A stretch of DNA of 64,000 nucleotides from contig CAWDSK010000005.1 in NCBI GenBank assembly GCA_963804995.1, positions 320,001-384,000 on the forward strand, read 5' to 3'. Under the pieces are notes generated by a model that worked only from the letters and a program-made list of their open reading frames with translations, had not been told where the DNA came from and did no database searches. The number at the start of each line of letters is the position of its first letter. The first letter of the stretch is position 1. The position numbers and the translations under genes were made by a program. Shown piece by piece: positions 23,369 through 62,666 of this stretch. Origin of the DNA: an uncultured Acidobacteriota bacterium (GTDB lineage: Bacteria; Acidobacteriota; Terriglobia; UBA7540).

Positions 23369-23772
23369 GGTAGTGACTCATTTTGAAGTGCCACGGCCGA
23401 CCTGCCCCGATGCATCGGGGTCCTGGCCGTGACCGGGCACGGGGGGGAGAAGGTGTGAAAAAATCCCCGCATAACTTTCACCGCAGAGGCGCGAAGGCGC
23501 AGAGAAAAGGACCTTTATTTTCATTCCTCTGCGCCTCAGCGTCTGCGCTATGAAAATGAATGTGGCAAAGGCACCTTGGAGTGCGGCGGCTCGCCGCCGC
23601 CTTGAATTTACGCCGAGGACGATGACGAAGGCGGCGTCGAGCCGCCGCACTCCAAGGTGCTTCGCACATTTTCATGTACAGTGGCGAGCCGAAGTCTCAT
23701 GGGAATCTGCGGTGAAAATTGCATTTTTTCACAGCTTCGGATGCCCGTGGCACGTCAAAATGCGTCACTACC
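23369..23772. mobile_element. Non-autonomous MITE with IS1-like ends and nested palindromes
   Basis: 28-bp imperfect terminal inverted repeats GGTAGTGACTCATTTTGAAGTGCCACGG / CCGTGGCACGTCAAAATGCGTCACTACC. 8-bp direct repeat GGACAGGC at 23361-23368 and 23773-23780. No transposase. Confidence 0.8.
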
Positions 23773-32643: not shown

Positions 32644-32793
32644 GTAGCGCGGTCCCCCGTTTTTTGGGGCCCGCGGTTCTTCATATGAAAAATCCGCAAA
32701 TCTAGGCCATGGGCGGCCGCTTCTTCGCCAGGATAAGTTCGCTCAAATGGCAAAGGAAGAACCGCGGACCTCAACAGCGGAGGTCCGCGCGAC
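32644..32793. repeat. GTAG REP-doublet (REPIN-like) element, copy 1
   Basis: GTAGCGCGGTCCCC-loop-GGGGCCCGCGG ... CGCGGACCTC-loop-GAGGTCCGCGCGAC. Similar to five other copies. Confidence 0.9.
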
Positions 32794-32799
32794 TCTCGC

Positions 32800-33360
32800 T
32801 CATTTCCGATTGGCTTTGCGTAGGGCGTCTATAAAATCTGGCGAGAATCCCCTCTTGGCAAGAATTGAGAGGATAAAGTCGCTCTTGCCTTCTATGTAGC
32901 TCGCAATGTCATGGGGGAACTCTCGGGCCAGCTTCGTTTTGAGGGCAGAGTATGTTGCAACATCTGACGGGTGGGCGCGCAGGTGGTCACGCAGCGCCAA
33001 GTGGTTGCGCAGCGCGAGACTTTCAGTCGGGCAAACGTAAAGATGGTGCGCCGGACTCCCGGGCGGATTGTCAAACGCTTCCCGGTCTTGAACCCCCAAA
33101 TCTCCGACGTGCGTATATCCGAGCTTCGCCAAGCGCGTCACGGCGAGCGGAATTTCCTGCCGCGAAGGGACGACGATGTCGATGTCGATGACGGGTTTGG
33201 CCGCCAGGCCCGGGACGGAGGTGCTTCCTACGTGCTCAATCCCCATGGCGAAATCACTGACACTCGGCCAGATACGTTCGCGCAGCCCGACAAAGAGATC
33301 CGGCCACTCTGGATCGTAGTCCACCACCTGAATGGTGCGAAGGGAGGTCGGCTGTTGCAC
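32800..33360 (-). CDS. GrpB family nucleotidyltransferase-fold protein
   Basis: YDPEWP, IEHVGSTSVPGLAAKPVIDIDI, HHLYV, RDHLR, YIEGKSDFI. Confidence 0.9.
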   Translation of the reverse strand: MQQPTSLRTIQVVDYDPEWPDLFVGLRERIWPSVSDFAMGIEHVGSTSVPGLAAKPVIDIDIVVPSRQEIPLAVTRLAKLGYTHVGDLGVQDREAFDNPPGSPAHHLYVCPTESLALRNHLALRDHLRAHPSDVATYSALKTKLAREFPHDIASYIEGKSDFILSILAKRGFSPDFIDALRKANRK

Positions 33361-33420
33361 GTCCTGAGGTTACCCCGGCGACGCAAGCTTGGTCAACCTG
33401 CGGTAGTGGGTCATTTTGCT

Positions 33421-33486
33421 GTAGAGGCGATCTCTGATCGACGAATTCACTGATTCTAAAAACCGGCGGTCGGAGACCGCTGCTAC
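33421..33486. repeat. Second GTAG REP-pair type
   Basis: GTAGAGGCGATCTCTGATCGACG ... CGGCGGTCGGAGACCGCTGCTAC, two hairpins in inverted arrangement. Confidence 0.6.
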
Positions 33487-33683
33487 AACAATCCAAATTG
33501 ACCCACTACCCAACCTGCAGTGTAGCACGCGTAGCGCGGTCCCCGTATTTGGGATCCGCGGTGCTTCATATGAAAGATCCACAAATCCTAAACCCGGGCG
33601 GCCACCCCACGCTGGTTTCTTCGCCACGGTACCTTCGCTCAGGGGGCGCACGAAGAACCGCGGACCTCAACGGCGGAGGTCCG

Positions 33684-35596
33684 GTGCGCCGGGATAAACC
33701 GGCAGAAAGCAGAGAATGAAAATTTCTCACGAGGAAGGAGCAGCGATCCACTCGGCCCCGAGTTTTGCGCTGGGCGTCGTGAGGCGCACGGTGAAGCGTA
33801 AACAGGGGAATAGGTGGGCTGGGTATTGAGCTTCGAAAATGTCCAATCAGGACGCCGACGTTTTCAGACTAAACGGAAGGCAACATGAGGCCGGGACGCC
33901 AACGCGAGTTCCGGCACAGTCCTGCGTAGTCGTAGACCCCAGACACGCCTAGACACTTTCTGCACGAGAACCGGGAGACCTCGGAGGCGCCGGCCGCCGT
34001 AGATCGTGGCCGGACGGCGGGAAAAGGCGATGGCCGTACAGCCCGCCTGCACGCTTTCGAGGAGTCGGACAGCGGAACAGTACCGATGAATCATTTGAAC
34101 AAAGACGGGAAGCCGTTGGCGGAGAATGAGGAGGGAAGGCCGCTGATCAAGGAGAACACCCGTTGGCCTAACACGCACCCGACACAGAGCGGGGCACGCG
34201 TGTCCCAGGGACTCGCGGGTGTGCGGAAAGCCGCGAAGGAACACAGGGAGATGAAGTTCACGGCCTTGCTCCACCACTTAACGGTCGATCTGCTGCGGGA
34301 AAGCTTTTACGCCTTGAAGCGAAAAGCTGCACCGGGAGTAGACGGCATGACGTGGCAGGAGTATGAAAGCGGGCTGGAAGGTCGACTCGTCGATCTGCAC
34401 AGCCGGGTCCACCGCGGAGCATTCCGAGCGAAGCCCTCGCGAAGGGCGTATATCCCGAAAGGCGACGGGCGGCAACGTCCGTTGGGGGTTGCGGCACTGG
34501 AGGACAAGATCGTCCAACAGGCCGTGGTCACCATCCTCAAGGCGATTTACGAGGAAGACTTTCTGGGCTTCTCGTATGGCTTTCGACCGGGATGCAGCCA
34601 GCATCAAGCGCTGGACGCGCTCTCGTACGCGCTCACGGTGAAGCACGTGAACTACGTTCTTGACGCGGACATTCGTGGATTTTTCGATTCGATATCCCAC
34701 GAATGGATGCTCAAGTTCGTGCAGCATCGCGTCGCCGACCCCCGGATTCTCCGGCTCATCCAGAAATGGCTGAAAGCCGGGGTGAGGGAGGAAGGCGAAT
34801 GGTCGGAGACGGAGATGGGTACGCCACAAGGGGCGGTGGTCTCGCCCCTGCTGGCGAATATCTATCTGCACTACGTCTTTGACCTGTGGGTGCAGGCGTG
34901 GCGCAAGAAGCACGCCCGGGGAGACGTGGTCGTGGTGCGGTATGCCGACGATACGGTCCTTGGATTCCAATCGCAGACGGAAGCCGACCGCTTTCTGGAG
35001 GATTTCCGGGAGCGGGTGGGGAAGTTTGGATTGGAACTGCATCCTGACAAAACGCGCCGGATCGAGTTCGGGCCGTTTGCCGAACTTTACCGGAAACGGA
35101 GAGGAGAAGGTAAGCCGGAGACGTTCGACTTTCTGGGCTTCACGCATATCAGCGGGAAGAACCGGAGGGGGCAATTTACCGTGAAGCGGAAGACGATCAG
35201 CAAGCGCCTGCGGGGGAAGTTGCAGGAACTCAAGCAACAACTCCGGCAGCGTCGGCACGATCCCATCGCGGATACGGGTAAATGGCTCCGGTCGGTCGTG
35301 CAAGGCTACTTCAACTATCACGCGGTACCGGGAAACCTCGACCGCCTGCGAATCTTTCGGGAACGGTTGACCCGACTGTGGCGAACACAACTGCGTCAAC
35401 GCAGTCAACGCCACCGCCTCAACTGGGACCGACTGGGGAAGCTTGCGGCCTGCTGGTTGCCTGCTCCGCACGTTGTGCATCCTTGGCCATCCCAACGGTT
35501 CGCCGCCACACATCCGAGATAAGAGCCGTATGCGCTAACCAGCGCACGTACGGATCCGTGCGGGGGGTACCGGGTAACCGGTATCCCTACCGCAAC
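33684..35596 (+). mobile_element. Group II intron (IIB-like, apparently full length)
   Basis: 5' GTGCG boundary. Domain V GAGCCGTATGCG..CGCACGTACGGATC at ~35523-35555, domain VI and AAC 3' end. RT ORF inside. Confidence 0.95.
34086..35522 (+). CDS. ltrA: Group II intron reverse transcriptase/maturase without En domain
   Basis: AAPGVDG, RPLGV, FSYGFRPG, DADIRGFFD, GTPQGAVVSPLLANIYLH, RYADD, FDFLGF, domain X GYFNYH. Start position is uncertain. Confidence 0.95.
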   Translation: MNHLNKDGKPLAENEEGRPLIKENTRWPNTHPTQSGARVSQGLAGVRKAAKEHREMKFTALLHHLTVDLLRESFYALKRKAAPGVDGMTWQEYESGLEGRLVDLHSRVHRGAFRAKPSRRAYIPKGDGRQRPLGVAALEDKIVQQAVVTILKAIYEEDFLGFSYGFRPGCSQHQALDALSYALTVKHVNYVLDADIRGFFDSISHEWMLKFVQHRVADPRILRLIQKWLKAGVREEGEWSETEMGTPQGAVVSPLLANIYLHYVFDLWVQAWRKKHARGDVVVVRYADDTVLGFQSQTEADRFLEDFRERVGKFGLELHPDKTRRIEFGPFAELYRKRRGEGKPETFDFLGFTHISGKNRRGQFTVKRKTISKRLRGKLQELKQQLRQRRHDPIADTGKWLRSVVQGYFNYHAVPGNLDRLRIFRERLTRLWRTQLRQRSQRHRLNWDRLGKLAACWLPAPHVVHPWPSQRFAATHPR

Positions 35597-35607
35597 CGCT
35601 ACCTTGG

Positions 35608-36455: not shown

Positions 36456-36606
36456 GTAGCGCGGTCCCCCGTTTTTTGATGGTCCGCGGCCCTTCAATTC
36501 AAAAATCCACAAATCCTAATTACGTGCGGCGGTTTCTTCGCCACAATACGTTCGCTCACGGGGCGCACGAAGAACCCCGGACCTCAACGGCGGAGGTCCG
36601 CGCTAC
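36456..36606. repeat. REPIN-like copy 3
   Basis: GTAGCGCGGTCCCC...GGACCTCAACGGCGGAGGTCCGCGCTAC. Confidence 0.9.
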
Positions 36607-39815: not shown

Positions 39816-39966
39816 ACCACCCCGTCGCCCGGCCCCGATAATCAATTTGGAAAAAACGCGCTATCGGGGCTCGGCGCGCCACCCCTCCTCATCTGAGGAG
39901 GGGAGTTCCGTAAAGGCTCCCCTCCTGATTTAGGAGGGGTGGCGCTCAGAGCGCCGGGGTGGTTAC
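39816..39966. repeat. CCCCTCCT/AGGAGGGG double-hairpin repeat, copy 1
   Basis: CACCCCTCCTCATCTGAGGAGGGG..CCCCTCCTGATTTAGGAGGGGTGGCGC..GCGCCGGGGTGGTTAC. Second copy at ~62557. Confidence 0.85.
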
Positions 39967-43540: not shown

Positions 43541-45487
43541 ATGAAGGCGAGGTCTAGCGAATCCCGGGCCCCAGCAAAATCTAAAAAGCGCGAGGGGCAG
43601 ATCGGAAACCTGACGAATGACCGCACACTGGGCATGAACGCGCGGATCTGCCGCCGCGATTTCCTGAACTCGGCGCTACTCGCTTCGGGAAGTGTGTTGC
43701 TCGAATCGCTGACCCCGCTCGAGCTCCTGGCGCAGCAGCCGGGCTGGGGAGGGTACACCGGAGAAGGCGATTACGCGGGTGCCAACGGGAACACGGAAGA
43801 GGTGATGCTGGCGGCGCATGCGGTGCGGGACGGGGTTTTCGATTCTCCTTCGACGGCGGTGGTGGACACGGGCGAGGTGTTTGACCTGGTGGTGGTGGGC
43901 GGTGGAATCAGCGGCCTGGCCTCGGCGTTGTACTTTAAGGACCAGGCGCAGCCCAAGCAGACCTGTCTGGTGCTCGAAAACCACCCCATTTTCGGCGGCC
44001 AGGCGCGGCGGAACGAATTCGTCGTGGATGGTCAGCGGCTGATTGCGCCGCAAGGGTCGAACTTTTTCTGGATGCCTCAACCGAAGCAGATCGAAGAGTT
44101 CTACACGCGCGTGGGTGTAGATCCGAGCCAGTTCAAATACCAGGAGTGGGGCGGTCCTCCACCGGCGATGCCGCTCAGCCACACCGGTTACTACTTCGCC
44201 CGCAATTTGCCGTCGCCCCCCAACTTCGGTTTTTACTTCGGTCCCAAGTTCGGCCAGCGGCCGGGAAAGTGGATTGTTGATCCCTGGAACAATTTGGACC
44301 AACTTCCCTTGTCGGCTGAAATGCGGTCTGATTTCGCCAAATACATCAAGGCGGTGATTGAGTACCACAATTCACCCCGGCATGATAGCACGGCGGAGTT
44401 GCGCCACTTTGACACCCTCACGGCTGAGGATGTGCTCATGGAGCGTCACGGCATCAGCCGCGAATTTCTCCGTTTGTTTCTCGCTCCCCATTCGGCGGCC
44501 GCCATTGGTTTAGGACCTGATGCCGTCACGGGTTTTCATTACGCGCTGTATGGTGCGGGCGATCGCCAGACGCGCCTTAGTTTTCCCGGTGGGAATACGG
44601 GTTTCACGCGGCACATTGTCAAGACACTCCTGCCGGAATCGATTCCCGGACCGCGCACGCTGGAAGCGGTTTGCCGCAATCGCGTGAACTTTGCTGCGCT
44701 GGATCGCTCTGCCAATCAGGTTCGCATCCGCTTGAAGTCGACAGCCGTCGCCGTCGAGCACGAAGGCGAGCCCCAGAAGTCCTCCTTGGTTCGCGTCACC
44801 TATATTCGCGACGGCAAAGTTTATCGCCTGAAGGCCCGCGCCGTGGTGATGGCGGGTGGCGGCTGGATTACCAAACACGTGGTGCGCGACCTGCCGGCCA
44901 CCCATCGTGAGGCCTATAACCAATTCAACTACTCGGCGAGCGTGGTGGCCAACGTGGCGGTGCGCAACTGGCGTTTCCTTCACAAACTGGGGCTTTCCGG
45001 CGGGCGCTGGTTCGAAGGTTTCGGCTTCTGGACGGAAGTGCGAACTATCGCCACCTTTGGCTCCGATAAGCCAACGATCGGGCCGGACTCTCCCACCGTC
45101 TTGTCGGTGATTGTGCCCTTCCATTATCCGGGCTTGCCGCTCGCCGAGCAGTGCAGCAAAGGCCGCGCGGAGCTGCTCTCCACGTCGTTTCGCGATTTCG
45201 AGCGGAATATTCGCGAACAATTTACGGAGATGTTTTCGATGTCCGGATTCGACGCGCGGCGGGATATTGCGGGGATTATCCTGAACCGGTGGGGGCACCA
45301 CTTCATAGTCCCCCAACCGGGGTTTATCTACGGAAAAGAGGGGAAACCCGCTCCCTCCGACATCCTGCGCAACGCGCCTTTTGGCAGGATTGCTTTTGCC
45401 AACACGGACCTGACGGGAGACAGTGGTCACGATCGGGCCATCATGGAGGGCCAGCGCGCCGTGAAGCAGCTTCTGTCTGCTTTGTAG
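43541..45487 (+). CDS. Tat-exported FAD-dependent oxidoreductase (spermidine dehydrogenase SpdH-like), paralogue 1
   Basis: LGMNARICRRDFLN, VVGGGISGL, LENHPIFGGQARRNEF, FPGGNTG, NRWGH, GRIAFANTD. Confidence 0.8.
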   Translation: MKARSSESRAPAKSKKREGQIGNLTNDRTLGMNARICRRDFLNSALLASGSVLLESLTPLELLAQQPGWGGYTGEGDYAGANGNTEEVMLAAHAVRDGVFDSPSTAVVDTGEVFDLVVVGGGISGLASALYFKDQAQPKQTCLVLENHPIFGGQARRNEFVVDGQRLIAPQGSNFFWMPQPKQIEEFYTRVGVDPSQFKYQEWGGPPPAMPLSHTGYYFARNLPSPPNFGFYFGPKFGQRPGKWIVDPWNNLDQLPLSAEMRSDFAKYIKAVIEYHNSPRHDSTAELRHFDTLTAEDVLMERHGISREFLRLFLAPHSAAAIGLGPDAVTGFHYALYGAGDRQTRLSFPGGNTGFTRHIVKTLLPESIPGPRTLEAVCRNRVNFAALDRSANQVRIRLKSTAVAVEHEGEPQKSSLVRVTYIRDGKVYRLKARAVVMAGGGWITKHVVRDLPATHREAYNQFNYSASVVANVAVRNWRFLHKLGLSGGRWFEGFGFWTEVRTIATFGSDKPTIGPDSPTVLSVIVPFHYPGLPLAEQCSKGRAELLSTSFRDFERNIREQFTEMFSMSGFDARRDIAGIILNRWGHHFIVPQPGFIYGKEGKPAPSDILRNAPFGRIAFANTDLTGDSGHDRAIMEGQRAVKQLLSAL

Positions 45488-45629
45488 CGCGGACCTCCGC
45501 CGTTGAGGTCCGCGGTTCTTCGTGCGCCATTTGAGCGAATGTACCGGGGCAAAGAGGCCGCCTGGGTTTAGGCTTTGTGGATTTTTCAAATGAAGAGCCG
45601 CGGACCCCAAAACCGGGGGACCGCGCTAC
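45484..45629. repeat. REPIN-like copy 4 (opposite orientation); its GTAG supplies the upstream stop codon
   Basis: GTAGCGCGGACCTCCGCCGTTGAGGTCCGCG...GGACCCCAAAACCGGGGGACCGCGCTAC. Confidence 0.9.
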
Positions 45630-45687
45630 GAAACAGATTGCTACGCCGGTTTACAGCACCTGCGATTTCGGAATTTGGCGAGGGTGC

Positions 45688-52882: not shown

Positions 52883-53028
52883 GTAGCGCGGACCTCCGCC
52901 GTTGAGGTCCGCGGTTCTTTGTGCGCCCATTGAGCGAATGTATCGTGGAGAAGCCGCCGCCTGGGTTTAGGCTTTGTAGATTTTTCAGATGAAGAGCCGC
53001 GGACCCCAAAACCGGGGGACCGCGCTAC
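52883..53028. repeat. REPIN-like copy 5, embedded among other REP-like hairpins (52795-53098)
   Basis: Near-identical to 45484-45629. Flanked by TGGACTGCGGTAGCAGCAGCTACCGC and CAGGTCCGACCTAC motifs. Confidence 0.9.
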
Positions 53029-53200
53029 GAAACAGGTCCGCGGTTTGTTCCCCATCGATAGCAAAAACCCACGAACCTGAAGGACAGGTCCGACCTACTC
53101 GCCGCGTGGGATTCTTGTTGCGTTCTTACTATCCTATGCTAGCTTTCGGTGTTGCTTTCCACTCAGCCGGCTGATGGCCCGTGTGAACAAGGGAGGAGCA

Positions 53201-62556: not shown

Positions 62557-62666
62557 CACCACCCCGTCGCTTGGCGCGACACCCCTCCTCATCTGAGGAG
62601 GGGTGTTCCGAGACAACTCCCCTCCTGATTCAGGAGGGGTGGCGCGCCGAGCGCCGGGGTGGTTAC
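62557..62666. repeat. CCCCTCCT/AGGAGGGG double-hairpin repeat, copy 2
   Basis: Matches 39816-39966. Confidence 0.85.

Follow-up and report, generated by a model that had tools for sequence, protein, structure and literature searches.

A probable class E group II intron that appears to home to RAYT-associated REP hairpins in an Acidobacteriota genome

The window, a 64,000-nt stretch of one contig from an uncultured Acidobacteriota bacterium, carries a group II intron inserted into a REP doublet (Table 1). A GrpB-family gene (PF04229, 32800-33360, minus strand) lies between two REP doublets and is divergent from the intron. Right after the 3′ exon stands a 43-aa LuxR/GerE helix-turn-helix fragment (PF00196, 35656-35787, plus strand), probably a gene remnant. 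Other palindromic repeat families occur in the window at 39869-39966 and 62569-62666 (CCCCTCCTCATCTGAGGAGGGG) and at 23551-23680 (GCGGCGGCTCGCCGCCGC type).

Table 1. Parts of the intron and of its REP target in window coordinates; a slash within a sequence marks the insertion point
Feature	Position	Strand	Basis
Second empty doublet, degenerate end (CGCGAC)	32644-32796	+	alignment
REP doublet (REPIN-like), part forming the 5′ exon	33531-33683	+	alignment with four intact window copies
Left REP: hairpin with GTAG; the site on its CTAC strand (GGACCR/CGCYA type) is unused	33531-33561	+	sequence
Targeted hairpin, 5′ arm; EBS1 look-alike able to pair with IBS1	33659-33668	+	folds
Candidate IBS2 (-13 to -9), within the loop of the REP hairpin	33671-33675	+	register covaries over 50 intron types; putative
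IBS1 (GGTCCG here, GGTCTG in most copies), hairpin 3′ arm	33678-33683	+	copy alignment
Group II intron, 1,913 nt; starts GTGCG (33684), ends AAC (35596)	33684-35596	+	ends set by 39 complete or almost complete copies
Domain I, Rfam RF02005 group-II-D1D4-6	33719-33939	+	170 bits
Candidate EBS2 (UGUCC)	33840-33844	+	putative
Candidate delta-prime A33858 and delta U33864	33858-33864	+	fold; putative
EBS1 (CAGACU)	33865-33870	+	site occupancy and compensatory change in relatives
Candidate EBS3 G, facing +1 C	33876	+	position after Id3 stem; +1 C in 37/37 copies
RT/maturase ORF, 478 aa, YADD at 34941-34952	34086-35522	+	TIGR04416, Pfam
Domains V-VI, with A35589 as candidate branch	35523-35596	+	RF00029 and fold
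3′ exon CGCTAC: final 2 bp of stem plus complement of the REP GTAG foot	35597-35602	+	CGCYA in 37/37 copies
Intact empty doublet, same family	36456-36606	+	alignment

The element has the GUGYG...AY ends, the domain I and the domains V-VI of a group II intron, the last with a marginal RF00029 score (39.2 bits, 0.8 bit below the cut-off of 40). Its YADD-bearing RT/maturase sits inside domain IV and scores 342 bits against TIGR04416 (cut-off 300). The Pfam search found RVT_1 and a weak GIIM match only, with no D/En endonuclease domain, in agreement with the original prediction of an IIB-like, En-less intron.

On plasmid pRmeGR4b, the intron protein has 57% identity to a disrupted RT and 35% to a second RT. 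According to section 5 of PMC5894124, this plasmid contains one RmInt1 copy as well as S.me.I4, a class E intron that is disrupted. We take the disrupted RT to be that of S.me.I4 and the second that of RmInt1, matching them by the paper's description, as the record names neither. A quick protein tree with long branches also joins our protein to the S.me.I4 region (SH-aLRT 93). Since identities and tree agree, the phylogenetic check proposed with the original prediction makes class E (IIB-like, En-less) the most likely assignment, with a single reference that sits on a long branch and was identified from that description. As for the class E features given in PMC3753933 and PMC3552965, the domain V loop folds here as 4 nt, the criterion being 5 nt, and CGC in the Id terminal loop is an alpha-prime candidate, with GCG in the Ib loop as a possible partner and little covariation. 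The 6-nt EBS1, the EBS2 register, the junction inside a stem and the lack of a terminator call do not correspond to class C (IIC).

In silico removal of the intron gave GGAGGTCCG/CGCTAC, the end of the intact doublets at 36456-36606, 45484-45631 (minus) and 52883-53030 (minus), so that the expected restoration of the repeat was borne out. The insertion point itself had been placed at the 3′ base of the REP hairpin, which is incorrect: it lies 2 bp within a 10-bp stem, formed by CGCGGACCTC (33659-33668) and GAGGTCCG/CG, on the CTAC-ending strand. No T-run follows this hairpin and no terminator was called at the junction.

With a strict pattern, we counted 370 REP hairpins with a four-base foot in the host genome (315 GTAG, 47 CTGG and 8 other) and 104 inverted doublets. 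The GTAG and CTGG types have a common stem core, which is the part read by the intron. Foot and hairpin, more than 100 extragenic copies and inverted doublets are all features of GTAG-family REPs and REPINs. Two of the 14 Y1-transposase matches in the genome are flanked by REPs left and right when the intron is taken out; the NF047646 scan covered these two, and both passed (117 and 112 bits, cut-off 80). For each of these two REP-associated tyrosine transposases (RAYTs), an intron copy is located within a flanking REP. Judged by sequence, a target that flanks two RAYTs fits the GTAG-REP/RAYT definition as given in PMC3733652.

The 7.55-Mb genome contains 40 matches to the intron at an identity of at least 99.7%, of which 39 are full-length or close to it, although four touch contig ends and could be counted twice; these copies make up about 1% of the genome. 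The ends of four assembly contigs lie in or beside intron copies (C2 start, C6 end, C7 start and C9 end). All 37 copies with both flanks have the junction RGTCYG/CGCYA in 37 distinct flank pairs, which excludes a chance insertion, and identity among copies ends at the intron boundaries. The original prediction would have fallen had other copies occurred in unrelated sequence; there were none among the 37 with readable flanks. The 37 copies of equal length differ by a mean of 3.4 bases, which indicates a recent burst. The site in the window is atypical among them: at position -2 it has C, as in 4/37 copies (5/6 pairs with EBS1), and T is found in the other 33/37 (6/6 pairs).

In total, the genome offers approximately 290 candidate sites, 37 of which are filled. 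As predicted, the EBS1 loop is located before GGAAGGCAAC and pairs at 5/6 positions with GGTCCG; in the fold CAGACT (33865-33870) lies within a 7-nt loop on the stem that precedes this sequence, and a U stands directly 5′ of EBS1 in 50/50 intron types compared. Among sites in leading orientation on contigs with an assigned polarity, fully pairing ones (T at -2) were filled in 27/62 cases and those with C at -2 in 3/59 (p=5e-7). A sister intron in the genome G307, 90% identical and with the EBS1 CGGACU, has C at -2 in 6/6 sites, and relatives with CAGACC or CAGACU have T. In G419 and G307, ORF-less elements some 650 nt long that carry CGGA.. likewise sit at GGTCCG, and CAGAC. elements at RGTCTG. 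This compensatory change between EBS1 and the -2 base in relatives identifies EBS1. The G307 sister intron has an EBS1 mismatch in 5/6 of its sites, mostly GGGCCG, yet it has left 41 exact GGTCCGCGCTA matches unfilled; GGGCCGCGCTA sites are few (9). One metagenome element with CAGACU was found at -2 C.

The remaining contacts are less firmly placed. The linker at 33840-33844 pairs with exon positions -9 to -12 at 2.12 of 4 positions, against 1.46 when shuffled, over 50 intron types that are related to one another and in a register that was chosen by eye, the offset -10 also scoring. This pairing places the candidate IBS2 in the loop of the REP. In the host genome, occupancy did not depend significantly on the quality of IBS2 (19/37 vs 8/25, p=0.19). 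As regards the candidate EBS3, some relatives with the same G carry a different +1 base.

Insertion also followed the direction of replication. On contigs with an assigned polarity, 31/32 copies point along the replication direction, a count that leaves out C1, C7 and C9 (8 copies) and uses a polarity assigned after the copies had been seen, from dnaA on C2, rplB on C6 and a weak third-position skew. On C2, the copies flip at dnaA (2/2 minus to the left, 3/3 plus to the right). The plain 100-kb GC skew was too weak (30/40 copies) and was replaced by the third-position skew and marker genes. Because contig polarity was set after the copies had been seen, the windowed skew is the fairer test: 34/40 copies lie with the fork, and 29/70 sites are filled in this orientation vs 4/95 in the other (p=3e-9). 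The direction of the upstream gene had no effect on occupancy (17/43 vs 9/24). Judging from these positions, the orientation of the copies is a lagging-template bias as in the En-less RmInt1 and RmInt2 (described in PMC4615759); a moderate bias of this kind is also reported genome-wide for class E (PMC8919778).

Could the copies have reached REPs without homing to them? Duplication or gene conversion of a single intron-REP composite would suit REP doublets that form tandem arrays, and two pairs of copies do adjoin (C6 end and C7). The 37 distinct flank pairs, however, already refute such passive spread for most copies, and copy identity that stops at the intron ends, the use of two REP families, the strand bias and the dependence of occupancy on EBS1 all speak against it; we regard it as extremely improbable. 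The intron might instead have inserted widely, with selection keeping only the insertions in REPs. Crude ORF calls contain 11/40 junctions, and only two of these ORFs score like genes (0.33 and 0.27), with one borderline (0.07) and the rest not gene-like. Junctions are thus mostly outside credible genes, as selection would leave them, and the suggestion that REPs serve as a safe harbour is mostly supported by these calls; the renewable supply that was suggested along with it would presuppose new REPs from an active RAYT. Yet equally harmless sites are empty. None of the 114 sites on the mirror side of the palindrome, which have the same IBS1 with another 3′ exon and loop, was filled, nor was any of the 67 GGACCR/CGCYA-type sites at the other doublet end, and only 1/76 of the sites facing against the fork was. 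Given also a base-exact junction and young copies, selection of this kind is a very unlikely source of the pattern.

Two further explanations assign a direct role to the REP or its transposase. The RNP may need the folded REP, with EBS2 entering the loop and EBS1 invading the stem, comparable to the hairpin requirement of class C. In favour of this, 27/64 sites with a hairpin are occupied vs 0/14 without it (p=0.002), the loop is precisely where the candidate IBS2 falls, and replication forks present the target as a single strand, in which hairpins can form. Since the 14 empty sites that have no hairpin also lack the distal sequence, the effects of the two cannot be separated. Hairpin energy, on the other hand, shows no trend with occupancy among REPs (p=0.17), one of three copies in the genome G070 occupies an arm-less site with a matching IBS1 and C at -10, 11/38 metagenome exons have no arm, relatives at 81-85% identity use non-hairpin repeats, and EBS1 has its full 6 nt, unlike in IIC. 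We therefore give structure-directed insertion little credence. The analogy with the hairpin targeting of class C, drawn in the original prediction, is weak because our data fit sequence-specific homing.

The other explanation concerns priming: the 3′-OH primer that the En-less protein cannot make would come from a nick by the RAYT, 5′ of the GTAG foot. According to PMC8266576, TnpA-REP cleaves single-stranded DNA at CT, 5′ or 3′ of the REP, leaving a 3′-OH. Here a 5′ cut would hit the bottom strand within the 3′ exon, and insertions are confined to the foot side of the palindrome (mirror sites 0/114). The matching dinucleotide, however, is not enriched at occupied sites (4/27 vs 3/35 at +7 to +12; 13/27 vs 14/35 at +7 to +26), the fork bias already explains priming, and relatives outside REPs share the protein layout. 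A contribution of the RAYT to priming is hardly credible.

The closest relatives of the intron are from Acidobacteriota, with a 93% relative in a genome of the same genus (G307). The 5′ end of the intron was matched in 15/29 genomes of the genus. Among the flanks examined there, which comprised 30 loci and 20 regions out of about 70 matches, REP-inserted relatives were found in G307, G070, G422 and G419 and, outside the genus set, in G002 (Candidatus Angelobacter). Besides the copy at the arm-less site, G070 has one with a non-REP 3′ flank. Across the class, the junction pattern occurred in 3/401 genomes, all of this genus. In metagenomes, the REP 5′ arm, which was outside the search pattern, accompanied 27/38 distinct exons vs a background of 9.9%, after 5 of 43 loci had been dropped as too short or duplicate. 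A plasmid search gave relatives of at most 61%. Other targets predominate among relatives at 73-85% identity, which makes homing to REPs a local specialisation. Two label changes are needed on the RNA tree, which is compatible with a single origin of REP homing; the quick protein tree does not decide between one origin and several.

Several other introns were seen in the survey. Siblings at 81-85% protein identity (L017, L025, L032, L097-L106 and L174) occupy a second, non-hairpin repeat of the ATGTTGATGAAAACAAAG type, with EBS1 loops that match. This repeat has about 130 copies in the host genome, and intron 5′ remnants lie in it there at C2:652257, C6:158096, C7:25744 and C1:206552. A large group at 73-78% (many of L019-L093) sits at AAATCGCCATTACA/CTCAT and another group at GATGTTA/CGCCAAC; these sites resemble opposite strands of one element end or recombination site. 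In the host, a diverged intron 5′ part (69%) with EBS1 CAGAGC lies at GCTCTG (C1:441118 and C4:131579, both minus). Its site belongs to another REP family (GCTGGCGCAGAGC...GCTCTGC, 74 pattern matches), and this lineage is possibly aimed at REPs independently. Within the genus there are ORF-less introns some 650 nt long (L159/L189, L145/L188, L182 and L173-L178), some of them inside REPs and some in tandem, and several elements begin with GAAAGCG or GUAAGCG instead of GUGCG. Another group II intron, with 34% protein identity, is present at C1:97964, C1:289876 and C3:1126646, with a shared target ending in CAATTCTCA or CATTTCTCA.

The REP 5′ arm mimics EBS1, and for this reason the exon hairpin of the precursor (-12 to -14 kcal/mol) should outcompete EBS1-IBS1 pairing (bare duplex -6.3 or -3.1 kcal/mol). 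Splicing may rely on the protein, on an EBS2 toehold or on a transcript that begins inside the REP. A scan of window positions 33300-34200 gave no sigma-70 promoter. In four public runs, an exon-exon joint across the intron was not found, the contigs there being mixed relatives only.

As far as genome comparison can establish them, a fixed junction, dependence on EBS1-IBS1 pairing, exclusive use of the foot side, fork orientation and a recent burst characterise this intron. It is very probably a class E-type (IIB-like, En-less) intron that homes, RmInt1-like and primed at the fork, to the conserved end, on the foot side, of REP hairpins associated with RAYTs. By analogy with RmInt1, the RNP formed after splicing would reverse-splice into the single-stranded template of the lagging strand. 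Positions -6 to -1 in the 3′ arm would pair with EBS1, the loop positions -13 to -9 with EBS2, and +1 with EBS3, and the protein might read the distal bases, CGCYA and probably AA at -15/-14 and C at -10. The nascent lagging strand would then prime cDNA synthesis. The palindrome accompanies the target and is probably not itself recognised. Insertion parts the GTAG foot from the hairpin by 1.9 kb; as both GTAG and the palindrome are important for TnpA-REP (PMC8266576), the REP is presumably lost as a RAYT substrate.

Homing of this kind would make the REP an abundant, mostly harmless landing site and offers a route to about 40 intron copies at little apparent cost. Class E mobility has received little work in the literature examined, and this genome can serve as a natural homing assay for its rules of EBS1 match, foot side and fork direction. 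It also lets one test directly whether introns hold REPIN populations in check, as RmInt1 does with its IS. A bolder proposal, which we think unlikely, is that REP homing constitutes a fourth target mode. In it, an Acidobacteriota class E lineage would read the folded REP through an EBS2 toehold in the loop, strand invasion by EBS1 and protein-foot contact, would retune EBS1 to RAYT-propagated variants and would be accompanied by ORF-less passengers. Introns and REPINs would then be a co-evolving pair of parasite on parasite, with every insertion destroying a RAYT substrate and splicing throttled by the EBS1-mimicking arm of the REP.

Bacterial group II target specificities listed in the 2015 review PMC4424553 are homing sites, terminators and attC. 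In open-access full text we found no group II intron with a REP homing site, a search to which subscription papers and supplements could add one; PMC1525189 (Table 1) does place a Pseudomonas putida group II intron near REPs in 2/9 cases. Thus a known element with known chemistry apparently uses a target class undescribed in this literature.

The closest parallel is with RmInt1 and RmInt2 of Sinorhizobium meliloti (class D, En-less), which also combine sequence-specific homing, a multi-copy non-essential target and a lagging-template bias; RmInt2 homes to IS inverted repeats and tolerates EBS2 mismatch, according to PMC4615759 and PMC5894124. In contrast to these, our intron targets a 30-nt REP with hundreds of copies rather than an IS and has about 40 copies instead of 7-10, and its protein is just 35% identical to the RmInt1-type RT on pRmeGR4b. 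With class E (S.me.I4, Cl.be.I2) it shares 57% identity to the RT taken as that of S.me.I4, the absence of En and a dominant EBS1 with a weak EBS2, as in the IIE splicing described in PMC3753933, but a REP target is not given for class E in the literature examined. Class C introns are likewise En-less, multi-copy, associated with intergenic hairpins and fork-primed (PMC4424553). They differ in a short EBS1 without EBS2 (PMC3753933) and in insertion after the hairpin, whereas here EBS1 has 6 nt and the junction is inside the stem of a hairpin that lacks a T-run. Insertion at one REP position in each copy is also known from REP-targeting IS (IS621, ISPpu9/10, ISPa11, IS1397 and ISRm22), as compiled in PMC1525189. 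Unlike those DNA transposases or recombinases, the element studied here is a ribozyme with an RT, whose own RNA loops target the site and which splicing would remove.
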